A stretch of DNA of 32,000 nucleotides from Caldimicrobium thiodismutans. Lineage in GTDB: Bacteria; Desulfobacterota; Thermodesulfobacteria; Thermodesulfobacteriales; Thermodesulfobacteriaceae. Below the pieces are notes generated by a model, which was not told the origin of the DNA, did no database searches, and worked only from the letters and a program-made list of their open reading frames with translations. Position 1 is the stretch's first letter; the number at the start of each line of letters is the position of its first letter. The position numbers and the translations under genes were made by a program. The stretch covers positions 1,590,001 through 1,622,000 of the forward strand of contig NZ_AP014945.1 of the NCBI RefSeq assembly GCF_001548275.1, in the 5' to 3' direction. Shown here one piece after another: positions 1,834 to 25,750 of the stretch.

Positions 1834-1861
1834 ATAATAAAGGCTTTTCGGAAAAATACAA
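1834..1861 (-). promoter_or_regulatory. Candidate sigma70-type promoter for the J-domain/lysC/cimA unit (TTGTAT-16-TATTAT)
   Basis: The minus strand reads TTGTAT (1861-1856), a 16-nt spacer, then TATTAT (1839-1834). The ATG at 1821 follows about 12 nt later with no Shine-Dalgarno, suggesting a very short leader. The -35 box sits 5 nt beyond the conserved end of repeat copy A. Confidence 0.35.
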
Positions 1862-1866
1862 GATTT

Positions 1867-2174
1867 CAAATTGCCTCACTAAAAATTTATTTGAAAATTT
1901 ATCGTTGCCTCATATAAAAAATTTTTCAATTTCAATTGAGCAAAGTTCTTAAAACTTTACGGAAAAACTATCTATTTTGCTTTTTTTAAATTCAAAAAAG
2001 GTGGACCTTAAGTCCCTTGGCAAAGCTTATTTCAGAGGAAAGAGTGGGTAAGGAGCTTTGCAGAAAGATAAGGCGATATCAGAAAATGCTTGAGAGAGCA
2101 TATTTAAAGAAAAAAGGAAATATTTTCGGGGAAAAATTGACAATAAAAAGGAGGGGAAGGTAAAATAATTTCCC
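1867..2174 (+). repeat. Intergenic cassette, copy A (about 300 bp, family of three in this window)
   Basis: Shares a left block with copy B (CAAATTGCCTCA..TTATCGTTGCCTCATATAAAAAAT, 24-nt exact run). Shares a right block with copy C (GGGAAAAATTGACAATAAAAAGGA, 24-nt exact run, plus GATATCAGAAAATG). The central part diverges. Confidence 0.85.
2137..2166 (+). promoter_or_regulatory. Candidate sigma70-type promoter at the right end of copy A (TTGACA-18-TAAAAT)
   Basis: Consensus -35 TTGACA at 2137-2142, an 18-nt spacer, then TAAAAT at 2161-2166. It points toward the 3' end of the convergent AMMECR1 gene. No annotated gene lies downstream. Confidence 0.45.
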
Positions 2175-2274
2175 TTTAGGAAATTAAATGAGGCATTACG
2201 GATTTAAATCCATTTTTCTTGGGTTTAGCAAAGGAGAGAACTTGCATGCTTCAGACAGAATTTAATTTCTTTGA

Positions 2275-2835: not shown

Positions 2836-3594
2836 CTAAGAGGGCTTTCCCAATTTACTCAGAATGAATTCTGCCGGGAGGACTCCACTTTTAATCTCTC
2901 CGTCTGGGAAGACAAAAGTAGGTGTCCCGCGCACTCCCAATTTCTGCATAAGCTGAATGGAGTCAGTTACCTTTTTGGTTCCCTCGGCACACTGATTTTT
3001 ACTGAGATAACCATTTTTTAATCCCTCAAAGCCTTTCTTGTCGCATAGAATGGAGATAGATTTGGCCTTAGCTTCTGGATGAATGGGTTCCAGAGGAAAG
3101 AGGATCACCTTTACTGAGAGCTTACCAGCTTTAACAAGTTCCTCAAGAATAGCTTCTGCCTTTTTACAGAAGGGACAATCTGGATCTGTAATTAGGTAAA
3201 TACTTGCAGGAGCTTGCCCCCAAGTAAAGGCAACAACCTTTTCCAGTTCCTGAAGAGTCTCTTTGGGAAGAACCCGTTTGTTTAAAAAGGCCAATTTTTC
3301 TGAAGTAAGATTTTTCTTGCTTGAGAGTTCAATAATGTTTCCACTAACTATAAATTGGCCTTTAGAGTCAGTGTAAAAGAGGGCCTTATCAGTATCAGAA
3401 ACCTTCACAATAACCTCGCAGAGACCAGCAACAGGAGATTTTTCAATTTTTTCTAAGGAGATTCCCTTCTGAATAGTATCCAGAGTCTTTTGAAAGTCCT
3501 CAATCTTTGGACAGTTAAAGGACTGGGAAACCCCTCCTTTACAGGAGAGAAAAAGTAAGGAAACAAGTGTTAACAAAGGAATCTTTTTTTTCAT
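2836..3594 (-). CDS. DsbC/DsbG-like thiol:disulfide interchange lipoprotein
   Basis: Signal peptide with lipobox (LLFLSC), an N-terminal dimerisation-like region, and a thioredoxin fold with CPFC and a downstream GTP (cis-Pro) motif. Confidence 0.75.
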   Translation of the reverse strand: MKKKIPLLTLVSLLFLSCKGGVSQSFNCPKIEDFQKTLDTIQKGISLEKIEKSPVAGLCEVIVKVSDTDKALFYTDSKGQFIVSGNIIELSSKKNLTSEKLAFLNKRVLPKETLQELEKVVAFTWGQAPASIYLITDPDCPFCKKAEAILEELVKAGKLSVKVILFPLEPIHPEAKAKSISILCDKKGFEGLKNGYLSKNQCAEGTKKVTDSIQLMQKLGVRGTPTFVFPDGEIKSGVLPAEFILSKLGKPS

Positions 3595-5748: not shown

Positions 5749-5904
5749 AGAACCTCTCCTCTTGAAGGCCTTTGAGTAAAGATTTAACATTAATTTAAAT
5801 CATCTCCCCCTTTTGTCAATCTTTTTGTATGCGTCCATATCTTTTGAGACTCTATAGGATTTTTTCTACTACTTCTGTTGGGGGAAAATGAACCTGTATT
5901 TTGT

Positions 5905-6060
5905 TGGGGCAAACCTATGTGGTTGCCCTCATTTGGAAAATCTATGTGTTTGCCTGTTATATGTTTTTTACATTAATGTAGGGGTTCAAAATCTCGAACC
6001 CCAACAAGGGTTTAAAATTTTAAACCCTTACATTGGGCAGTCACTATGTGTTTGCCCCTC
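5905..6060 (+). repeat. Left arm of imperfect inverted repeats flanking the AAA-ATPase gene
   Basis: Contains GGGGCAAACCTATGTGGTTGCCC and three copies of CTATGTG(G/T)TTGCC (5915, 5942, 6044). Also holds the hairpin GGGGTTCAAAATCTCGAACCCC (5981-6002) and the perfect palindrome GGGTTTAAAATTTTAAACCC (6008-6027). Confidence 0.8.
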
Positions 6061-6132
6061 TTTTAACCTCTCACTTCTCACCTCTTACCACACTTCCTTT
6101 TTTTTAAGGATCTGAACTTATGCTATTAGACC

Positions 6133-7683
6133 TTAATTTAATTTTTCCCAGAAATAGCCCTTGATATTCCTCCCCCCTGAAGAAAATTCAATCCCTATAA
6201 GATAAATCTCTTTGAATGAACCCTCATATTTCTTATGATACCCCTTCTCCTTAAGTTGAGCTAAGGCTTTAGCTTCTGTCTCTTCTCCCTCAACCACCTT
6301 GAACTCAAAAAGATAAACTCTTTCTCTGTATAGCACCGTCAAATCTATCTGCCCCTTATTTGTTATATCCTCAGGTATCACCTCAAGCCCTGACCCACAC
6401 AAAAAGGCATAAAAACAACTTGCATAATACCCCTCATAACGAAAAAGCTCATTCTTCCTGAACCAATCATGGGGTATCCCTGCATAAAGACTCTCAAGAA
6501 CCTTCTTCATCTTCTCAAAATCCCTCTCCCTCACTGCCTCAATCATCTTAAGAGATAGCCTTGGTCTTTCTGAACTGAGCTGAGTAAAATAAGAAAAAAG
6601 AACTCTATTTAAACTAATCTTTACCTCTTTATTCGGATAAGAAAGCTTATAGAGAATTAACCCTTCCTCTTCAATAGTTTCTTTAATGGTCAAATAACCC
6701 ACCTGAAAGAGAAGGTTTTCTGGTTCAATATAGTCAAGGTCAAAAGAGCCAATAAGGTCATCAGTTGCAGTTAGGTCTTCAAGCTCGGGAAGATAAAAAC
6801 GCTTCTCAAGAAGAAGCTTTATAAGAAAACTTGGAGTCCCAGTTTCAAACCAGTAGGGGTGGAATTTTTTTTCCTCTAAATAGAGAAGGACATCAAAGGG
6901 ATTATAGAGAGGCTCTCCAAGCCAGGAATAACCATTATACCAGCATTTAATAAGCTTTAAGTCTTTATCTTGTAGTTCTTCTCCAAAGACCTCTTCAAGC
7001 TCTTCTTGAGTGTATCCGCAGATAGTTGCATACTCCTTGCTTATAGTAATGTCTCTTAACTGATTTAGCCCTGAAAAAAGAGAAACCTTTGAGAATTTGG
7101 AAACTCCCGTTAGGAAAACAAATTTTAAATAAGCATCAAGGGGCTTAAGAACACTATAAAAGTTCTTGAGGACATCTCTTATTGCCTTTGCGGTTTCTCT
7201 ATCCTCAATGCAATCAAGAATGGGTTTATCATACTCATCAACAAGAACTACAACTTTTTGCTTATACTTCTCATAACTTTTAAGAATTAATTCCTCAAAA
7301 CAGCTATCATATTGTGTTTTCTTTGAACAGGAGACTCCAAGGGTTTCTTGATTTTTCTCAAGCTGTTCAAGAATATAAGTTATTAAATGTTCCTCTCCTT
7401 TGAGGGTTCTTCCCCCAAAATCAATATGAATAACAGGATATTTAACACTCCAGTCCCAGTGTTTCTCAAGATAGAGCCCCTGGAAAAGCTCTTTTCTTCC
7501 AAGGAAAGCCTGTTTCAGGGTATCCACAAAAAGGGATTTTCCAAATCTCCTCGGGCGAGAGAGAAAATAATAAGTTCCCTCTTCAACAAGCTTTGCAACA
7601 AAAGGAGTCTTATCCACATAATAATAGGGTTCACTTCTAATCTTTTCAAAGCTTGAAATTCCAATGGGAAGTTTTTTCTCCAT
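6133..7683 (-). CDS. AAA-ATPase-like domain + PD-(D/E)XK nuclease-like C-terminal domain protein (uncharacterised family)
   Basis: 516 aa. The N-terminus LPIGISSFEKIR..YYYVDKT..YFLSRPRRFGKSL matches the predicted AAA-ATPase (PF09820-type) signature. The C-terminus GQIDLTVLYRERVYLFEFKV resembles the D...ExK core of PDDEXK_9-type domains. Confidence 0.8.
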   Translation of the reverse strand: MEKKLPIGISSFEKIRSEPYYYVDKTPFVAKLVEEGTYYFLSRPRRFGKSLFVDTLKQAFLGRKELFQGLYLEKHWDWSVKYPVIHIDFGGRTLKGEEHLITYILEQLEKNQETLGVSCSKKTQYDSCFEELILKSYEKYKQKVVVLVDEYDKPILDCIEDRETAKAIRDVLKNFYSVLKPLDAYLKFVFLTGVSKFSKVSLFSGLNQLRDITISKEYATICGYTQEELEEVFGEELQDKDLKLIKCWYNGYSWLGEPLYNPFDVLLYLEEKKFHPYWFETGTPSFLIKLLLEKRFYLPELEDLTATDDLIGSFDLDYIEPENLLFQVGYLTIKETIEEEGLILYKLSYPNKEVKISLNRVLFSYFTQLSSERPRLSLKMIEAVRERDFEKMKKVLESLYAGIPHDWFRKNELFRYEGYYASCFYAFLCGSGLEVIPEDITNKGQIDLTVLYRERVYLFEFKVVEGEETEAKALAQLKEKGYHKKYEGSFKEIYLIGIEFSSGGRNIKGYFWEKLN

Positions 7684-7723: not shown

Positions 7724-7858
7724 GTAGGGGTTCAAGATTTTGAACTCCTACATTTAATCGCAATCAATTTTTATTAATATAGAGGTCAGAGCTGTGGGGG
7801 TTGCCACATTGATGCGAAAGAACACATAACAGGCAAACACAGAGGTTTGCCCCTACCG
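7724..7858 (-). repeat. Right arm of imperfect inverted repeats flanking the AAA-ATPase gene
   Basis: The reverse complement reads GGGGCAAACCTCTGTGTTTGCCTGTTATGTGTTCTTT ... ATGTAGGAGTTCAAAATCTTGAACCCC, matching left-arm blocks in the same order. The ORF track shows the same peptides on opposite strands (VGANLC.C and NVGVQNLEP). Confidence 0.8.
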
Positions 7859-16196: not shown

Positions 16197-16553
16197 TGGT
16201 GGAGGCGGCGGGAATTGAACCCGCGTCCGAAGATAGTTCAGATTAAACCACTACAGGCTTAGCCTGTGGAGGAATCTCGTAGAGAGCTCGTCACAGGCAC
16301 CGAAGCCCTCTACCAGGCAAGAGGTATCTTGGAAATTCCTGTCTTGCCACCAGGAATCCCCAGAGCCTTCCTTGGTCACGCCCCTTGAGGCCGGAAGGCA
16401 AAGCACTCAAGGAACGAGGCTGCACTTAATTAAGCAGCCTGAGCGTAAGCGTATTCGTTGGCAATTGTGTTTTTGCACCCTTTTTAACGTGGCGAGTGCG
16501 ACCACGGCCTGCGATTTAACCCTACCTATCCCCGTCGAGCCCTTTTCGCCCCC
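16197..16553 (-). ncRNA. ssrA: tmRNA (SsrA), one-piece, CCA-encoded
   Basis: The minus strand begins GGGGGCGAAAAGGGCTCGACGGGG and ends GGACGCGGGTTCAATTCCCGCCGCCTCCACCA. The acceptor stem has a G3:U pair. The tag reading frame GCC AAC GAA TAC GCT TAC GCT CAG GCT GCT TAA (16462-16430) encodes ANEYAYAQAA. Confidence 0.95.
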
Positions 16554-16573
16554 ATCTTTTTAAAGAACTAAAA

Positions 16574-16603
16574 TTAATATAAAACCTTTAGGTAAAAATT
16601 CAA
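16574..16603 (-). promoter_or_regulatory. Candidate promoter for ssrA (TTGAAT-18-TATTAA)
   Basis: The minus strand reads TTGAAT (16603-16598), an 18-nt spacer, then TATTAA (16579-16574), about 20 nt upstream of the mature tmRNA 5' end. The -35 box sits 5 nt beyond the conserved end of repeat copy B. Confidence 0.3.
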
Positions 16604-16608
16604 GCTCT

Positions 16609-16890
16609 CAAATTGCCTCATTAAAAATCTATTTGAAATTTTATCGTTGCCTCATATAAAAAATCTCAGCTCCTCTCTTGAACCTTCACGAAAAAACTAT
16701 CTATTTCGCCCCTCTTAAAATTACAAGCTTAGTTCTTTCGCAAAGCTTATTTTAAAGGAAAGAGGGCTGGAAAAGTAAAGGAGCTTTAAAGAAAGATAAG
16801 GAGATATCAGAAAATGTTTGAAAGAGCATACTTAGAAAAAAAGTATTTATTCCCAGGAAAAATTGACAGGAAAAAAGAGGGGGTAAAAAT
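16609..16890 (+). repeat. Intergenic cassette, copy B
   Basis: Shares exact runs of 37 nt (CATATAAAAAATCTCAGCTCCTCTCTTGAACCTTCAC) and 35 nt (TTTCGCCCCTCTTAAAATTACAAGCTTAGTTCTTT) with the reverse complement of copy C. Its left block is shared with copy A. Confidence 0.85.
16863..16890 (+). promoter_or_regulatory. Candidate sigma70-type -35 (TTGACA) at the right end of copy B, facing fliK
   Basis: TTGACA at 16863-16868, homologous to the box in copies A and C. The -10 is less clear (GTAAAAAT at 16883-16890, short spacer). Confidence 0.3.
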
Positions 16891-17051
16891 GAGCATAAGT
16901 TCAGATCCTTACAAGAAAAAGGAAGGGTTGATCTTTCATGAGAATCATTTGAAAGACATACATTTCCAGGGGAAATAGAAAATTTTTCCCAGAAAGGAAA
17001 ATTTTTCCAGTCCAATTCCTGAGAAAGCTTGATTTTTCTTATTTTTTCGAT

Positions 17052-17067
17052 TGGCATAAAGTTTGAT
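17052..17067 (+). promoter_or_regulatory. Candidate sigma54 (-24/-12) promoter upstream of fliK
   Basis: TGGCATAAAGTTTGAT has GG and the -12 G at the canonical 12-nt spacing of TGGCAC-N5-TTGC. However, the -12 reads TTGA rather than TTGC. It lies about 42 nt upstream of the fliK ATG. Confidence 0.3.
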
Positions 17068-19316: not shown

Positions 19317-20702
19317 ATGAGTCTCTTTGGCAATATGTATATTGGATACTCTGGGCTTTATACAGATACCATTGCTACAAGGGTATCTGCTGACAATATT
19401 GCTAACTTGAATACTATTGCTTTTAAGGGATCTCGGACTGAGTTTGCCAGTAGGCTCGTAAGGGAAAGCGAAGTTTTTGGAAGGGAAAGGGGGATTGGAT
19501 CAGCGGTCAAGGATATTCGCTCTATTTTTACCCAGGGACCAATTCAAAGCACAGATGTCCCCACAGACCTTGCTATATCTGGGAAAGGTTTCTTCGTATT
19601 AGCGGATAAAAAGGGCAATTTCTATTATACCAGGGATGGACAATTTTTTATTAATGATGCAGATAAGGATCATTTTACCTTACAAAATGCCCTTGGGATG
19701 AGCCTTCTTGGAGCAGACCCCACTGCAACCTCTGCAGATCTTGCAACTCTTAAACCTTATATTATTCCCAAGGTCATGTCCTCCAAGGCAACATCTACCC
19801 TTTCTGTCGAACTTATTCTGGATGCAAGAACCCCTGTAAATAGCCAGAGTTTACTTGACAAATATGATGCTTCTTTAAGACCTGATAAACCTTTAGAAGA
19901 GGGAGCATATAACTGGGTCTTTGACTGGTATATCTATGATCAAACCGGAGAGATGATACCAGTAAAACTTTATGTAGATAGAGGAGACTCTGCTAATACT
20001 TATGAAGTGCTTTTTGCCCTTGCTGATCCAGCTAAGGATGGAAGGGGAGATGGAAAGATGAAAGGAGCCTTTTTATACGGCACCTTAACCTTTGGTGGAG
20101 GGGGTGAAATAGTTTCAGCAGATTTTTCTCAGGTCTCCCTTGATGGCACTTTAACTCCCCTTGATCTAACAGCCCTTGGAAAGCCAAAAACCCCTTTAAA
20201 CATAAATGGAAGAACCCAGGAAATAACCCTTGATCTTGGTTTTACTGTGAATCCAGATGCTTCTATAACCCGGGAAAGGGGCTCTATTAAAATGATAGCC
20301 AATGCCTTTACCCAGCTTGGATTTATCCAAGATGGTTATCCTATGGGAATTTTTGAAAGAATTGAAGTTATAAATGAAGAGGGTCTTATTAAGGCCTGGT
20401 ATACCAACCAGAAAGAAATTGCGGTTGCAAGGATTTTTCTTGCAGATTTTTCAGGTTATGAAGATTCCCTGGAAAAATTAGGAAATGGGCTTTTTAGAAC
20501 CAGGCCTGGTGTTACCACCTATTTTTTTGCTCCAAGTTCTGCTGAAAGGGGAAGAATAGTATCAGGTGCCCTTGAGGGCTCAAATGTGGATCTTGCAAAT
20601 GAGATGGTGAATCTAATTATGCTTCAAAGAAGTTTTCAGAGTAATTCCCGGGTGATAACAACTTCAGATCAGATGCTTGAAGACTTTTTGAGACAGAGGT
20701 AA
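19317..20702 (+). CDS. flgE: Flagellar hook protein, short paralog (461 aa)
   Basis: N-terminal rod/hook motif (ADNIANLNTIAFKGSR), GKGFF..YTRDGQF, and a C-terminal LEGSNVDLANEMVNLIMLQRSFQSNSRVITTSDQML domain. Confidence 0.85.
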   Translation: MSLFGNMYIGYSGLYTDTIATRVSADNIANLNTIAFKGSRTEFASRLVRESEVFGRERGIGSAVKDIRSIFTQGPIQSTDVPTDLAISGKGFFVLADKKGNFYYTRDGQFFINDADKDHFTLQNALGMSLLGADPTATSADLATLKPYIIPKVMSSKATSTLSVELILDARTPVNSQSLLDKYDASLRPDKPLEEGAYNWVFDWYIYDQTGEMIPVKLYVDRGDSANTYEVLFALADPAKDGRGDGKMKGAFLYGTLTFGGGGEIVSADFSQVSLDGTLTPLDLTALGKPKTPLNINGRTQEITLDLGFTVNPDASITRERGSIKMIANAFTQLGFIQDGYPMGIFERIEVINEEGLIKAWYTNQKEIAVARIFLADFSGYEDSLEKLGNGLFRTRPGVTTYFFAPSSAERGRIVSGALEGSNVDLANEMVNLIMLQRSFQSNSRVITTSDQMLEDFLRQR

Positions 20703-20761: not shown

Positions 20762-23002
20762 ATGGGTTTAACAGATGCACTTTTTACTGGAACAAGTGGA
20801 TTAAGGGCCCTTGGGCATGGAATGAGTGTTATTGGTGACAATGTATCTAATCTTAATACTACCGCCTTTAAAGGGGCTCGGATTACCTTTTCAGACATTA
20901 TGGCCCAGTCTATTAATACAGCCGCAGGTTCTGGTCAGCTTGGAAGAGGTTCTGGAATTCAGGCTCTATATCAGCTTTTTACTCAGGGTGCCTTTGAATC
21001 CACAGCAAGTCCAACTGATATGGCTATTGCAGGGGCCGGGTTCTTTATGGTTAAGAACCCACAAACTACAGGTGGAATCTTTTATACAAGGGATGGACAG
21101 TTTGTAATTGACAAAGAGGGCTTCCTTGTTAATCCCCAGGGATTAAGGGTTCAGGGCTGGAAAATTGATGAAGTAACCAATGATATTACAGGAGCTTTAA
21201 CTGACATCCGTATAGACCGTTCTTCTCCTCCAGTAAAAACTACAAAGGTTGATATGATTACCAATCTTGATGCAAGAACCGAGGCAAGAAGTAATGTTAT
21301 CAATCTAAGTGGTAATCTCAAAGATGCAATAGGTGGTGGAGGCACCTCAGTATCTAATACTTTTGTAATAAGGGATATTGATGGAAAAGATAATAAAATA
21401 CAGGTTACTTTAACCTGGGATGTGGATATACAAAAATGGAGCTATACCATTACTGATGTTGCAAGTGGACAAATTCTCTCTTCAGGAACAAATGTTACTT
21501 CTACCAGGACAACTATAGAACTACCTTCAACAAAGGAACAGATAATTTTTGACTGGAGTAGTATTACTCATGATAGTGCCGCTGACGATAGCTTAAATAT
21601 TCCTGGAAGAACAGGAAGAATTGAAATTAACCCTACTGGAATTACACCGGGTGCGTGGACTTCATATTATTTTGATAATGTAGTGGATGCTAATGGAACC
21701 TCAAGGGATATAAGAGTTTGGTTACAATATGACAACACTACCTCAAGATGGAATTATTATGTTTTTGAAAATCCAACAGATGGTGCTACAGAGCCCTCTG
21801 AAGAAACAGGAGCAATTCAACTTGCAAGAGGTGAAAAATCAAATGAGACCAATATCTTTTTCTTTCTTGATGGAACCTCTCAGAGGATCAATCTTGATTG
21901 GTCAACCACTAATCCCACTAATCCCACTACATACATTTTACAGGAACCTCCTACTCTCTTTTCTTCCTGGGATGCCAAAAAAGAGGTGCCAATTCCATCT
22001 ACAGCCTATGCCTATCGTTCCACTATGTTTGTATATGACTCCTTGGGAACACCCCATGAAATCACCTTTTATTTTAATCCAACCTCAAAGGACAATGTAT
22101 GGGAAGTTCTTGTAGCTTGCAATCCAAATGAGGACCAGCGGGATTTTACAAGAGATACCAATCCCATGCAATGGCAATATGAAGAGGGTGCTGTAACTCA
22201 AAAGGTCTCTATAGATTCGGGAAAGGTTTTTACTGAGGAAAAAAGAGGAGTATTAATGTATGGAAGGCTTGAATTTGATAATCAGGGTAATGTGAAAAAG
22301 TTTTATGAGACCTACAGGCTTGATGCTAACACAGGAGCCCTTGTGCAGATAATTCAGGGATATGCCCAAAATGGTCAACCAGTAGCCTTACCAGAAGATA
22401 AATACGGTGCCCTTGGAGCCAATGGATATCCTTTGATAGTAGCAGATTTCCTTGGCATTGATTTCACTTATGATCATTACGCTCCCAATGATGTGAATCA
22501 AGGATCCCTTAGAAATGATCTACAACAAATTGAACTTAATTTTGGGTATTTTTATAAAGACACCTGGCGCTCTGAATCCGTTCGCACAACTCAATATGCA
22601 ACCTCTAATGCTACTCTCTTTTATGATCAGAATGGTTTTGGACCAGGAGCCCTTGAAAACATATCTGTTGACAATGAGGGTCGTATAACTGGAATCTATT
22701 CCAATGGAAGGGTTATTCCTCTCTGGATGGTGGGATTAGCAAACTTTAATGCCCCAGAAAGATTGCAGAAAGTGGGTGGAAATCTTTTTAGAGAAACCAC
22801 CCATTCAGGACCGCCTGTTACTGGAAAACCAGGCACAAATGGCCTTGGAACCATTGCCCCAAACTCCATTGAACAATCTAATGTGGACCTGGGAGAACAG
22901 TTTGTGAAAATGATCATCTTTCAGAGGGGCTTTCAGGCTGATTCTCGTATCATTACAGTTTCAGATACCATGCTTGAAGAACTCATTAATCTCAAGAGAT
23001 AA
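20762..23002 (+). CDS. flgE: Flagellar hook protein, long paralog (746 aa) with expanded central domains
   Basis: N-terminal GDNVSNLNTTAFKG, GAGFF..YTRDGQF, and C-terminal IEQSNVDLGEQFVKMIIFQRGFQADSRIITVSDTML. The central insertion is large compared with the short paralog. Confidence 0.85.
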   Translation: MGLTDALFTGTSGLRALGHGMSVIGDNVSNLNTTAFKGARITFSDIMAQSINTAAGSGQLGRGSGIQALYQLFTQGAFESTASPTDMAIAGAGFFMVKNPQTTGGIFYTRDGQFVIDKEGFLVNPQGLRVQGWKIDEVTNDITGALTDIRIDRSSPPVKTTKVDMITNLDARTEARSNVINLSGNLKDAIGGGGTSVSNTFVIRDIDGKDNKIQVTLTWDVDIQKWSYTITDVASGQILSSGTNVTSTRTTIELPSTKEQIIFDWSSITHDSAADDSLNIPGRTGRIEINPTGITPGAWTSYYFDNVVDANGTSRDIRVWLQYDNTTSRWNYYVFENPTDGATEPSEETGAIQLARGEKSNETNIFFFLDGTSQRINLDWSTTNPTNPTTYILQEPPTLFSSWDAKKEVPIPSTAYAYRSTMFVYDSLGTPHEITFYFNPTSKDNVWEVLVACNPNEDQRDFTRDTNPMQWQYEEGAVTQKVSIDSGKVFTEEKRGVLMYGRLEFDNQGNVKKFYETYRLDANTGALVQIIQGYAQNGQPVALPEDKYGALGANGYPLIVADFLGIDFTYDHYAPNDVNQGSLRNDLQQIELNFGYFYKDTWRSESVRTTQYATSNATLFYDQNGFGPGALENISVDNEGRITGIYSNGRVIPLWMVGLANFNAPERLQKVGGNLFRETTHSGPPVTGKPGTNGLGTIAPNSIEQSNVDLGEQFVKMIIFQRGFQADSRIITVSDTMLEELINLKR

Positions 23003-23016
23003 TCAGGCCTTAATCC

Positions 23017-23039
23017 GGGGAGAGGCGTTCCCTCTCCCC
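23017..23039. terminator. GC-rich hairpin after flgE (possible terminator, no clear U-tract)
   Basis: GGGGAGAGG-CGTTC-CCTCTCCCC, a 9-bp perfect stem, 15 nt after the flgE stop. There is no T-run on either strand, so its function as an intrinsic terminator is uncertain. Confidence 0.45.
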
Positions 23040-23095
23040 CCTTGCATAGGTTTAATATTCTTACAAAAAAAGAAGGGTGGTTAGTTTGGTAAAAA

Positions 23096-23392
23096 GGAAG
23101 TTATTTTATCTCACCTATCCTTTTTATTGTCAATTTTTCCCTGAAAATAATTTCCTTTTTTCTTTAAATATACTCTCTGAAGCATTTTCTGATATCTCCT
23201 TATCTTTATGTAAAGCTCCTTTACCTTTCCACTCGCTCTTTCCTTTGAAATAAGCTTTGCTAAAGAACTAAGCTTGTAATTTTAAGAGGGGCGAAAAAGA
23301 TAGTTTTTTTTGTGAAGGTTCAAGAGAGGAGCTGAGATTTTTTATATGGGGCAACGATAAAATTTTGAATAGATTTTTAATGAGGCAATTTG
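23096..23392 (-). repeat. Intergenic cassette, copy C (inverted relative to A and B)
   Basis: The reverse complement aligns end to end with copy B (37-nt and 35-nt exact runs) and with the right block of copy A (24-nt exact run including TTGACA). Confidence 0.85.
23103..23134 (-). promoter_or_regulatory. Candidate sigma70-type promoter at the right end of copy C, pointing into the flgE 3' end
   Basis: Minus-strand TTGACA (23134-23129). Candidate -10 boxes are GATAAA (18-nt spacer) or TAAAAT (20-nt spacer). No annotated gene lies downstream on that strand. Confidence 0.3.
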
Positions 23393-23396
23393 CCCC

Positions 23397-23425
23397 TTGT
23401 AAAGTTGTAAATTTAAATCTAAAAT
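23397..23425 (+). promoter_or_regulatory. Candidate promoter giving a leaderless helicase mRNA (TTGTAA-17-TAAAAT)
   Basis: TTGTAA at 23397-23402, a 17-nt spacer, TAAAAT at 23420-23425, then 6 nt (AAAGCT) and the ATG at 23432. No Shine-Dalgarno is present. Confidence 0.45.
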
Positions 23426-23431
23426 AAAGCT

Positions 23432-25750
23432 ATGTCCCCAAATTTAATTCTTTATCAGGCCAGTGCTGGCTCTGGAAAGACCTATCAACTCTCCTTAAGT
23501 TATCTTAAACTCTTGAAGTGCTTTTCTCAATCAAAAAAAGAGGCCTTAAAGGGCATTCTTGCTATAACCTTTACCAATAAGGCAGTTTATGAGATGAAGG
23601 ATCGCATTATTTCCTTTCTTAAAGAGATAGCTTTGAAGACAAATAAAGGCCTTATTCTTGCTCAGGAAAGTGGTCTCACTCCTCAGGAAGCAGAAAATTT
23701 TTTAGAGGAAATTTTTCTCCATTATGATTATCTTGAAATTAGAACCATTGATAGCTTTTTACTTAAGCTTTTCCGAGGGTTGGCCTACGAGTTGAATCTC
23801 CATCCTGATTTTAAAATCAAAAACTATTTAGATGATACCCATATTGAAAGGGCTCTCATTCGCCTCTTTGAAAAAGCTCAGCTTGATGAAAAAATCTGGC
23901 AATTTTTAGAGGCCTTTGTGGACTTTCTTTTAAGCTATGAAGACTCCTTAAAAATAAACTTTAAGAGCAAAATAATTTCAGAACTTGAAAAATTAGTTAA
24001 TCTTTCCACTTACCGGGAGGAACTTCTCCGCACAAATGAAGAATTTGATACCTTTGAAGAAAATTCCTCTGATAAACCTACAACCTCTTTAAGAGGACAC
24101 CTCTATTTTAAACTCTGGAACTTACTTAAAGAAGAATTAGAGAAGGTGCTTAATGAAGAAGGCACTCTCTATATGGGGATCTGGAAAGAAAAACTTGCTC
24201 AGACCTTACAGAGGGACTTTTTACCCTGGATTTATCTGAAACTTGGAAATTTGCAGGCCTTTATCATTGATGAGTTTCAGGATACCGATAAATTGCAGTG
24301 GACTGCAATTTTTCCCTTAGTTGAAGATCTCATAAGTAACCGCAAGCTTTTTCTTGCTGCAGGTGATACCAAACAGTCTATTTATCGCTGGAAAGGAGGA
24401 GATCCTGGTCTCATTCGTTCTCTTAAAGAGAATTTAAGAGATTATGGGCTTTCTGAAAAAAATTTAAATTTTAATTTCAGAAGCTCTCTGTCTATTGTTG
24501 AATTCAATAACTCTTTTTTTAATTTTCTTAAAAATGAGGAAGAACTTAAAAAAGAGATATTAAAAAGGATTGTTTTTGGAAAAAACGACAAAAAGCCAGA
24601 AGAGGATCTTTTATCCTTAGCGCAGAGTGAATTTGATGAACTTTTTTCCCATATTACTCAGTCTGCTAATAAAGATCATCCCGGGAAGGTTTTTATTGAA
24701 TGGCTCCCTGTGAAGGGAGAGACTCAAAAGTTAGCTAACGCCCTTATTTATCAAAAGATTAAAGATATATTAGAGGAGCTCAAGAACAAAGACTCCTTAG
24801 AAAATACCGCCATTCTTATGAGGGAAAACAAAGAGGTCATTGAGATGTCAGCCTATCTTTTATCCCAGGGGTTTAGTGTTATTGGAAGCTCTTTTTTAAA
24901 GTTAAAGGAATCTCCACTCATTAATACTCTGGTTTCCTATTTAAGGCTCCTTTATGGCTATGAGGATGAAATATCTCTCGCTACTATCCTATTGGGTCTC
25001 TTTAAAGAGAGGGGAAAGGAAATTCTCTTAAATTATCAAAAAATAAGACCTTTTAAAAATTTGGATTTTACCCTTCTTAGCTATCTTAAAACTTATGAAT
25101 CTTCCTTTTATAAGGAAGCCTTTGAAATTCCCCTCAGTAAGGGAAGATTACTAAATATTTACCAGTTTGTGAGATTCCTGGTAAGTTTCTTTTCCTTGGA
25201 AGAGGCCTTTCCTCAGGAAAAACCCTATCTTTGTAAATTTTTAAGCTTACTGCTAAGATTTACCGCTCAAGAAGGAGACCCCTTAGAGTTTTTAGATAAC
25301 TGGGAGAACTTAGCTGAGGAGGAAGAGGTTGAACTTCCAGAAGAAAGCTCAAGCATTAAAGTCATGACTATTCATAAGTCAAAGGGGCTTGAATTTTCTA
25401 AGGTAATTGTTCCCCTAAACTTTAATACCAGAAGGTATCAACCCCCTCTGGGTTTACTCTTTACTGAAAAGGGGGTGCATAAGGGAAAAAAGGATGAACT
25501 TCCTCAAGAGTTACTTTATCTCTATTATTTGGAAAAAATTCAGCATTCTTTGGAGATCTTTAATCTTTTTTATGTGGCCTTTACAAGAGCCATGCAAAAT
25601 CTTTATATTCTTGTTCCAGTGGGTTTAAAAAATAATTTTGATTCCGCTGAAATTTTTATTCAGATTTTTGAATCTTTAAAAGAGCAAGTCTCCGTCCTTA
25701 AAGTGAAAAATTTTCTTGTAGAAAGATCTTTAAATCTTCATAATTTTTAA
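23432..25750 (+). CDS. UvrD/Rep/AddA-family superfamily 1 helicase, no recognisable nuclease domain
   Basis: Walker A ASAGSGKT, motif Ia TFTNKAVYEM, motif II IIDEFQDT, motif III GDTKQSIYRWKGG, motif V TIHKSKGLEF, motif VI YVAFTRAMQNLYIL. The protein ends about 45 aa after motif VI. Confidence 0.85.
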   Translation: MSPNLILYQASAGSGKTYQLSLSYLKLLKCFSQSKKEALKGILAITFTNKAVYEMKDRIISFLKEIALKTNKGLILAQESGLTPQEAENFLEEIFLHYDYLEIRTIDSFLLKLFRGLAYELNLHPDFKIKNYLDDTHIERALIRLFEKAQLDEKIWQFLEAFVDFLLSYEDSLKINFKSKIISELEKLVNLSTYREELLRTNEEFDTFEENSSDKPTTSLRGHLYFKLWNLLKEELEKVLNEEGTLYMGIWKEKLAQTLQRDFLPWIYLKLGNLQAFIIDEFQDTDKLQWTAIFPLVEDLISNRKLFLAAGDTKQSIYRWKGGDPGLIRSLKENLRDYGLSEKNLNFNFRSSLSIVEFNNSFFNFLKNEEELKKEILKRIVFGKNDKKPEEDLLSLAQSEFDELFSHITQSANKDHPGKVFIEWLPVKGETQKLANALIYQKIKDILEELKNKDSLENTAILMRENKEVIEMSAYLLSQGFSVIGSSFLKLKESPLINTLVSYLRLLYGYEDEISLATILLGLFKERGKEILLNYQKIRPFKNLDFTLLSYLKTYESSFYKEAFEIPLSKGRLLNIYQFVRFLVSFFSLEEAFPQEKPYLCKFLSLLLRFTAQEGDPLEFLDNWENLAEEEEVELPEESSSIKVMTIHKSKGLEFSKVIVPLNFNTRRYQPPLGLLFTEKGVHKGKKDELPQELLYLYYLEKIQHSLEIFNLFYVAFTRAMQNLYILVPVGLKNNFDSAEIFIQIFESLKEQVSVLKVKNFLVERSLNLHNF

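Follow-up and report, generated by a model that had tools for sequence, protein, structure and literature searches.

Three intergenic stretches of about 300 bp in the genome of Caldimicrobium thiodismutans resemble one another closely, and each of them adjoins the promoter of a transcription unit. What are these cassettes, and why do they lie beside promoters? The question arises from a piece of 32,000 nucleotides of this genome (contig NZ_AP014945.1, positions 1,590,001 to 1,622,000 of the forward strand), hereafter the window, which carries the three cassettes as copies A, B and C. A first-pass annotation, made from the sequence alone, described them as a portable divergent-promoter or regulator-binding module, different from a simple repetitive extragenic palindromic (REP) or terminator element, and did not recognise them as a known element. 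The cassettes are very probably copies of one non-autonomous MITE (miniature inverted-repeat transposable element), derived from an insertion sequence (IS) of the ISNCY/ISBj12-like type and inserted beside promoters. They are portable indeed, as a transposable element is, and of a recognisable kind.

The left block of the cassettes matches the end of an IS. It contains two TTGCC(T/C)CA boxes, which had been placed about 35 nt apart and are separated by 34 nt. A scan of one genome per species with the two-box pattern TTGCCNCA-N22-30-TCGTTGCCNCATATAAA gave 27 loci, which belong to at least 10 phyla and in many cases lie at the end of a contig (the numbers L004 to L051 denote comparison loci retrieved from genome and metagenome collections). 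At L004, L011, L013, L017, L022, L038-L044, L050 and L051, the same boxes form inverted repeats around an rve transposase gene. When whole cassettes were compared by BLASTN with all retrieved loci, the match was confined to the left end of about 52 nt, over which the window copies are 80-95% identical to full-length IS ends; the left ends of copy B and of the IS at L022 are 94.6% identical over 56 nt. A hidden Markov model (HMM) of the IS ends recognises the left ends in the window with E values of 1e-12 to 1e-13. Each full-length end has at least two direct units of about 34 nt containing TTGCCTCAT-TAAAAA, and repeated TTGCCTCA(T)-type boxes at the ends are common to the ISNCY/ISBj12-like ISs and the window copies. 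The arrangement in which a TTGAAA-N16-TATAAA site overlaps the second box also recurs in the full-length ends of L022 and L007.

The full-length relatives have a single gene of about 410-460 codons, whose product matches Pfam rve and gives 50-55 bits with the NCBIfam IS481 model, below the cut-off of that model. Homologues on plasmids are annotated by NCBI as ISNCY or "ISNCY-like element ISBj12 family". Homologues of the transposase fall into 7194 protein clusters at E<=1e-40, most of which come from contigs of about 1.4-2 kb. The predicted structure (mean predicted local distance difference test score, pLDDT, 80.5) combines helical domains at the N-terminus and helices at the C-terminus with an RNase-H-like core and a small beta-barrel. 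A fold search with this model returned only generic cores of the retroviral-integrase type and nothing that bears on target reading, and a sequence search against solved structures gave no match. This rve-type DDE transposase, the sole open reading frame (ORF) of the relatives, is absent from the window copies, which makes them derivatives of the ISNCY/ISBj12-like group and not autonomous members; the transposase HMM found no gene or fragment elsewhere in the window either.

What remains of the transposase lies in the right block. A profile HMM of 80 transposases of the family was compared with six-frame translations of the cassettes and with 2000 composition-matched shuffles. The only frame that it matched is the plus-strand frame with the right-block motifs: positions 329-365 of the profile (mKLvEKeReGSKVKKrYDkPkTPYQRVL) align with AKLISKERAGGKVKELYIKIR-RYQKML. 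None of the 2000 shuffles reached the score of the L036 allele of copy C, and two of 2000 reached that of copies C and A. In the predicted structure the segment corresponds to the beta-barrel and the next helix, near the C-terminus, and the strand and position of the relic are those expected for a derivative that has kept the left and right ends after an internal deletion. The apparent Shine-Dalgarno sequence and ATG of the cassettes, AAGGAGATATCAGAAAATG, is the codon string (K)RRYQKM of this relic. The relic is a pseudogene fragment, since the frame is shifted here in copies B and D and copy A lacks 9 nt. The first-pass annotation had noted that an intact ORF across the element in other genomes would make the cassettes gene remnants: in the relatives the same ends do enclose an intact transposase ORF, of which the right block is the relic.

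Copy A seems to have kept both ends. Its right terminus reads ...AAATGAGGCATTACG, and it is supported by a fourth copy, D, since the homology between A and D stops exactly after ..AAATGAGG(C/T)ATTACG. Read as its reverse complement, CGTAATGCCTCATTTAATTTC, the right end agrees with the left one, CGAATTGCCTCATTAAAAATC, at 16 of 21 positions; copies A and D carry CG(A/T)A(T/A)TGCCTCATT.. at the left and right termini alike, and the inverted right box of copy A is the best non-self match of the IS-end HMM in the whole window. A Smith-Waterman search for a second inverted end gave nothing above background in B and C, and the right box of copy A was brought out only by this HMM and by the comparison with D. 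Copy A is moreover flanked by a clean 5-bp duplication, GATTT, read directly from the sequence. Similarly, full-length relatives on finished plasmids are flanked by 5-bp duplications (CTACC for that of Mycobacterium riyadhense, CACCG for that of Rhodococcus rhodochrous) and have the same arrangement of 4-nt tip, box and duplication as copy A. In copy C, CAAGGGG at 23399-23393 and 23044-23038 is a possible target duplication.

The three copies lie where the first-pass annotation had put them, with exact left edges; the intact right edge of copy A is at 2200, 26 nt beyond the reported 2174. Copy B has a degenerate right end, AAATGAGCATAAG, with a 21-nt deletion relative to copy A, and the right terminal box of copy C is replaced by an inverted copy of an unrelated short repeat, repeat X (23080-23045). 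Copy D was found on L037 through a small cassette ORF, and a fifth copy, E, is known from protein P0123 of the complete C. thiodismutans genome. Two small cassette-derived ORFs are called in that genome, one being that of copy A and the other copy E; the 48-aa ORF in copy A and a hypothetical protein of C. thiodismutans are 100% identical, and because of this match to a protein of a complete genome, the cassettes are not assembly artefacts. Cassette sequences also occur on contigs of the JGI metagenome 3300038964.

The copies measure 291-343 bp, and the ORFs inside them are short (24-54 aa) and frameshifted. Identity is 83.5% between A and B, 83.5% between A and C and 88.3% between B and C. 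The 24-nt left core TTATCGTTGCCNCATATAAAAAAT occurs exactly three times in the window (none expected from shuffles), as does the 14-nt GATATCAGAAAATG (about zero by chance). The longest exact runs (37 and 35 nt for B and C, 24 nt for A and C, 25 nt for A and B) agree with those reported before, to within one nucleotide. The internal junctions are identical in each of the five copies sequenced (A to D, and C also as the allele at L036), and copies with this one internal structure are dispersed: three lie in the window, D is on L037, and E is represented by P0123. It therefore appears that one deletion derivative was amplified, as is the case of a MITE. The cassette body was sought elsewhere with GATAAGGNGATATCAGAAAATG: these scans gave no viral match and three metagenome matches, which share only a 22-26-mer.

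The mosaic look of the copies, which had also been remarked, is real. A second strain from the same metagenome (L036 487-926, against 22990-23440 of the window) carries copy C at the same site with identical flanks. Inside the copy about 20 substitutions (about 8% of positions) separate the two alleles, and about half of them restore the consensus of the other copies. These differences fit gene conversion among copies; a mixed assembly of paralogous reads also could explain them.

The first-pass annotation saw outward-facing promoter boxes at both ends of the cassettes. On the left side, as had been reported, each of the three copies has a -35-like hexamer at 4-5 nt beyond its edge, followed by a -10 element (TTGTAT-N16-TATTAT for A, TTGAAT-N16-TATATT for B and TTGTAA-N17-TAAAAT for C), but all of these sites are outside the repeat. 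In L033, where the helicase protein has 74% identity, TTGTAA-N17-TAAAAT-N6-ATG is kept and there is no cassette; nucleotide homology to the window ends exactly at the left edge of copy C. In L035, a Caldimicrobium metagenome-assembled genome (MAG), the ssrA leader and the -35 hexamer TTGAA(T/A) are kept, again with no cassette. As these comparisons show, the left outward promoters at the ssrA and helicase sites are native host promoters; that of the DnaJ-domain/lysC operon is likewise the insertion target and not a part of the element. A divergent-promoter module is therefore not what the cassettes are, since the left promoters pre-exist in cassette-free relatives, and the promoter-like sites that the element itself carries, the inward one and that of the right end, both read rightward.

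Two observations concern these sites. At the place of copy C, L033 carries about 190 nt of other repeat-rich DNA (528-755, AGGCTTTAGCCTGC repeats): from this comparison, repeats land recurrently at this intergenic place. At several promoters that adjoin elements, the start codon lies 6-12 nt past the -10 (23425-23432, 1821-1834, L037 2209-2225, L011 ~3423-3440, L050 ~440-470). This implies leaderless or near-leaderless mRNAs for the helicase, the DnaJ-like protein, the alcohol dehydrogenase, galU and a Mycobacterium gene; in the case of the helicase the mRNA is leaderless because the ATG is only 6 nt past the -10.

The placement beside promoters is a property of the family. From the tip of CGAA, CGAG or CAAA type, the outward flank reads N5-TTGACA-N16-18-TAnnnT. 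With a strict test that requires TTG and at least four of six matches at an offset of 4-6 and TAnnnT at a spacing of 16-18, 23 of the 32 unique ends of these types pass, and several of the remaining ones are near misses. Of 30 other ends none passes, and random positions do so at a rate of 0.18%. Six insertions of one identical IS and one insertion in the complete genome of Atrimonas thermophila all read tip-N5-TTGAC(A/T)-N16/17-TAnnnT, with unrelated spacers and unrelated downstream genes, which include a tRNA gene and the phosphoenolpyruvate carboxykinase gene. Three copies in one Nitrospirota MAG have the same placement. Promoter-adjacent insertion was found across at least eight phyla, including Thermodesulfobacteriota, Nitrospirota, Acidobacteriota, Actinomycetota, Atribacterota, Synergistota and Caldisericota. 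As the same pattern recurs with unrelated spacers and downstream genes, the promoter is the target and not a cargo. It was also considered that TGTCAA might be the TGT terminus of the IS itself, as in IS1202-like elements. This was rejected: among copies of one identical IS, and among the three copies in one MAG, the five bases up to the tip and all bases beyond vary. TGTCAA is here the -35 hexamer of the flank.

Some loci of the family are less simple. Two family ends lie tip-to-tip with a 5-nt spacer at L012 180-295, L006 ~5600 and L013 ~4660; they could be tandem or circle-junction-like structures, or the result of insertion beside the end of another copy, and the arrangement suggests that the left end of the element itself, which contains TTGAC, serves as a target as well. 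At L017 724-1974, in an Actinomycetota MAG, a full-length family IS is interrupted by an IS110-like element (416-aa ORF). At L011 3464-4920, the promoter-adjacent CGAA tip is on the 3' side of the transposase gene, and the interior seems to have the opposite orientation to the tips, for which recombination between the terminal repeats is a possible cause.

These results suggest the following scenario. The cassette would have arisen by internal deletion of an ISNCY/ISBj12-like IS of about 1.45 kb that encoded one rve-type DDE transposase of about 410 aa. Its left end consists of a 4-nt tip (CAAA or CGAA) and two, possibly three, direct repeats of about 34 nt with TTGCCTCAT-TAAAAA, its centre and right part of a frameshifted relic of the last ~40-60 transposase codons, and its right end of a degenerate inverted repeat, ..AAATGAGGCAT-TACG. 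The TTGCCTCAT-TAAAAA boxes are presumed binding sites of the transposase, and the transposase of a full-length relative, by binding them, could mobilise the cassette in trans. The idea of a regulator-binding module would then hold in so far as the left boxes are presumably protein-binding repeats, recognised by a transposase and not by a regulator. The CGAA-type end would integrate exactly 5 bp upstream of a sigma-70-type -35 hexamer and duplicate those 5 bp. It would follow from this choice of target that each copy stands back-to-back with an intact host promoter (dnaJ-like/lysC, ssrA, helicase, alcohol dehydrogenase). The promoter might be recognised by an N-terminal helix-turn-helix domain that reads the -35 DNA, or through capture of promoter-bound RNA polymerase or sigma factor; the latter may be involved because the -35 and the -10 are both enriched while the surroundings are unrelated. 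Insertion may affect the transcription of neighbouring genes. Copies B and C, with their damaged right ends, are probably immobile fossils, and B, C and D are likely rearranged or fossil copies.

Several points weigh against the MITE and its targeting of promoters. The similarity of the relic is short (about 37 aa, 6-10 bits), and the right inverted repeat is weak, with one box, 16 of 21 positions and an HMM E value of about 1 window-wide. A clean duplication is found in copy A only: copy D is flanked by GCCTT and GTAAA, copy B by none, and the right ends of B and C are rearranged. No duplication surrounds the metagenome-assembled full-length ISs (six copies of one IS; L011, L017, L022 and L038) or the full-length copy of Atrimonas. 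No autonomous Caldimicrobium partner was found among the top 120 transposase homologues, none of which is labelled Caldimicrobium. The ISBj12 copy that was examined has no obvious promoter at 5 bp, and one Rhodococcus copy lies inside a gene with only a weak TTGTTC-N17-CAAGAT beside it, which hints that the -35-like DNA itself matters. The enrichment of the -10 could come from recognition of polymerase-bound promoters, and selection against within-gene insertions could also contribute to it. As an assumption, the metagenome-assembled and Atrimonas full-length copies may owe their missing duplications to assemblies that join repeats chimerically or to recombination at a later time. The idea of a family that makes no duplication was rejected on account of the perfect 5-bp repeats in two finished plasmids. 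An inversion between B and C, considered as the cause of the missing duplication of B, was rejected too, as their flanks do not cross-match.

It is improbable that the cassettes are a portable regulatory module whose promoters or regulator-binding site control the flanking genes, even as a secondary role for which the MITE was exapted. The boxes and the TTGACA are conserved in all copies, but the boxes are terminal repeats of ISs beside transposase genes in many phyla, and beyond the ends the indels and frameshifts among copies give no sign of constraint. At four promoters the element has replaced the DNA upstream of -40; the left promoters nevertheless predate the insertion. Both TTGAAA-N16-TATAAA and TTGACA-N18-TAAAAT point rightward, there is no terminator inside the cassette on that strand, and the right end faces fliK in copy B and prmA in copy D. 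On the contrary, the right ends of A and C face the 3' ends of convergent genes. The right-end TTGACA...TAAAAT has a spacing of 18-19 in A, C and D, and of 15-16 with TAAAAA/AAAAAT in B; sigma-70-like matches in these AT-rich stretches number 1-2, with 1.0-1.4 expected from shuffles. Because such matches occur at chance frequency, the right-end "promoter" of the first-pass annotation is a conserved sequence and not a demonstrated promoter. fliK does not depend on the TTGACA of the cassette, since its conserved sigma-54-type promoter (TTGGCATAAAGTTTGAT) and the upstream GGAAAATTTTTCC palindromes (16975-17058; L035 ~19985-20130) are kept in the cassette-free L035.

Decay in place of three full-length ISs, independently of one another, would account for left ends that are IS ends, for a body that holds a transposase relic and for the lack of a clean target duplication in most copies. 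It is very unlikely, given that separate deletions would not reproduce the shared junctions and a body of about 230 nt at 83-88% identity, and that copy A has both ends and a 5-bp duplication. Hardly any credence can be given to paralogous small RNA genes, or to genes for small proteins that start at AAGGAGATATCAGAAAATG. The strong Shine-Dalgarno-like sequence and ATG are kept in all copies, gene callers predict ORFs of 48-65 aa in some of them, and the inward promoter could transcribe the body; the frame after the ATG nevertheless differs among copies (24, 25 and 54 aa), B and D are frameshifted, and the supposed start is made of the relic codons RRYQKM. The same 26-mer is, by chance, the start region of an unrelated gene: L031 206-231 matches AAGATAAGGAGATATCAGAAAATGT exactly over 26 nt in the ribosome-binding region of an unrelated membrane-protein gene, a chance match which shows that this motif is a generic strong start region. 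The first-pass annotation had suggested checking for a structured RNA. An Rfam search of the window gives only the transfer-messenger RNA (tmRNA), the folding energies are no better than those of shuffles (z-scores of -0.42 and -0.17), and in the fold of the alignment the covariation term is +2.76, a net penalty due to non-compensatory changes, with one compensatory pair in 64, the five sequences giving low power. The cassette is not a palindromic repeat of the REP or bacterial interspersed mosaic element type or an intrinsic terminator, and that annotation had rightly set simple REP and terminator elements aside: no terminator-like site on the strand of the element and no significant internal inverted repeat were found.

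The deletion derivative of an ISNCY/ISBj12-like IS has counterparts elsewhere. MITEs are known from several bacteria, the Correia elements of Neisseria being an example. Formation by internal deletion of an IS is documented for instance for MITEAba12 (PMC6382973), and prokaryotic MITEs have been reviewed (PMC10969869). Like these, the cassettes are about 300 bp long, multi-copy, AT-rich and intergenic, they have no transposase gene, their ends match those of an IS, the duplication seen at copy A is short, and promoter-like hexamers at the ends are possible. They differ in their asymmetric ends (two or three left boxes, compared to one degenerate right box), in a body that keeps a recognisable C-terminal relic of the transposase, and in being positioned relative to promoters, and not at a short sequence such as TA. 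With the ISNCY/ISBj12 family they share the TTGCCTC boxes, also carried by the end of the ISBj12 copy, and, in copy A, a duplication of 5 bp; unlike its members, they lack the transposase, and their tips (CAAA/CGAA ... TACG) and spacers are those of the Caldimicrobium element itself. In the family, left tips are CGAA, CGAG or CAAA and right tips ..CATG, CAGG, TAGG or TACG.

By analogy, the closest described behaviour is that of the ISAba32 subgroup of the IS1202 family, the "dif-site hunters" (PMC10132070; bioRxiv 10.1101/2022.12.17.520857). These too are ISs of about 1.5 kb that encode a single large DDE transposase and have additional subterminal sites for its binding, and they insert in one orientation, left end nearest, exactly 5 bp from a protein-binding site, with a 5-6 bp duplication. 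Their target is the XerC arm of dif/pdif sites, whereas the flank is here a TTGACA-N17-TATAAT promoter, and their ends are 5'-TGT...ACA-3', whereas they are here C-N3-TTGCCTCA. Searches on ISLbi1, ISBj12, promoter-targeting ISs and a Caldimicrobium MITE gave nothing relevant beyond the IS1202 papers, and no description of promoter-directed insertion by the ISNCY/ISBj12-like group was found in the searchable literature.

More distant parallels exist. Tn7 inserts at attTn7, and the eukaryotic elements Ty1, Ty3 and Tf1 integrate next to transcription start regions. The likeness lies in a "safe-haven" integration at a fixed distance from a conserved site, which leaves the host gene intact; the machinery is unrelated, and no dedicated target selector is evident here, the IS having a single ORF. 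Matus-Garcia, Nijveen and van Passel reportedly described "putative mobile promoters" and promoter propagation in prokaryotes in 2012. Homologous intergenic DNA upstream of unrelated genes is found here as well, but the repeat ends 5 bp before the promoter, and the promoters are not related to one another.

The cassette itself is an ordinary object, and the interesting by-product is the promoter-adjacent, oriented insertion of the family. For C. thiodismutans, puzzling conserved "promoter cassettes" would be explained as ordinary mobile-DNA fossils, which calls for caution before their boxes are read as regulator sites or their Shine-Dalgarno sequence and ATG as a gene. The cassettes also exposed how an IS family that is very large and for the most part uncharacterised places its insertions. 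That this family and its MITEs actively target, in one orientation, the position 5 bp upstream of sigma-70-type -35 hexamers, and that this behaviour is both real and undescribed, is a tentative proposal, for which belief and doubt are nearly in balance, with doubt slightly ahead. If true, it would be a bacterial safe-haven strategy comparable to that of Tn7 at attTn7, of dif-hunting IS1202 elements and of Ty/Tf1; the insertions would be natural markers of real promoters in uncultured genomes, and the transposase might give a compact single-protein system for inserting DNA beside promoters. The elements replace upstream regions (UP elements, activator sites) where they land, and could rewire regulation while core promoters are spared.

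Table 1. Coordinates of the cassettes, their parts and adjoining features (window positions unless a locus is named).
Feature	Position	Strand	Remarks
Copy A (putative MITE), intact form	1867..2200	+	334 bp; right edge set by the end of homology with copy D
Parts of copy A	1871-1878, 1905-1912 (boxes); 2189-2196 (right box); 2197-2200 (right tip)		left tip CAAA; right box TGAGGCAT; right tip TACG
Copy B (putative MITE)	16609..16899	+	left end intact: tip 16609-16612, boxes 16613-16620 and 16647-16654
Copy C (putative MITE)	23096..23392	-	left end intact: tip 23392-23389, boxes 23388-23381 and 23354-23347
Copy D, fourth copy	L037 2251-2593		adjoins the promoter of an alcohol-dehydrogenase gene
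Transposase C-terminal coding relic	2008..2139	+	..AKLIS.ER.GK..RRYQKMLER..; holds GCAAAGCTTATTT, AAGGAGCTTT and GATATCAGAAAATG
Target-site duplication GATTT, left copy	1862..1866		these 5 bp also separate the -35 hexamer from the tip of the element
Target-site duplication GATTT, right copy	2201..2205		
Inward promoter-like site TTGAAA-N16-TATAAA	1891..1918 (A); 16633-16660 (B)	+	overlaps box 2; presumed transposase promoter of the parent IS
Candidate outward promoter TTGACA-N18-TAAAAT	2137..2166	+	in the relic/right-end region, pointing right
DnaJ-domain/lysC operon promoter	1834..1861	-	TTGTAT 1861-1856, N16, TATTAT 1839-1834; ATG 1821, 12 nt downstream
ssrA promoter, native	16576..16603	-	TTGAAT-N16-TATATT; 5 bp from the tip of copy B
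UvrD-like helicase promoter	23397..23425	+	TTGTAA-N17-TAAAAT; ATG 23432, 6 nt after the -10
tmRNA gene ssrA	16197..16553	-	Rfam RF00023, 191 bits; neighbour of copy B, outside the element
Repeat X, separate short dispersed family	16892..16928 (+), 6124-6090 (-), 23045-23080 (+), 27410-27376 (-)		

The genes that flank the cassettes are those of a DnaJ-domain protein and aspartokinase for copy A, of FliK for copy B, and of FlgE and a UvrD-like helicase for copy C. Among named relatives, those nearest to this helicase belong to Caldimicrobium MAGs. Repeat X, (A/G)CATAAGTTCA(G/T)ATCCTTACAAGAAAAAGGAAGGGTGG, occurs in intergenic DNA only, with further copies at L037 5091-5122 (-) and L036 511-548. 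It adjoins the right end of B in direct orientation and that of C in inverted orientation, in place of the right box; at 6124 and in L037 it runs on into GGTGAGA(A/G)GTGA(G/A)AGG.

A last observation concerns the ORF at 6133-7683 (-), which has AAA-ATPase_like and PDDEXK_9 domains. It is flanked at 5903-6032 and 7724-7856 by inverted palindromic repeats of the GTAGGGGTTCAAAATCTCGAACCCC and GGCAAAC...GTTTGCC types, and the gene may be a mobile or repeat-flanked unit.

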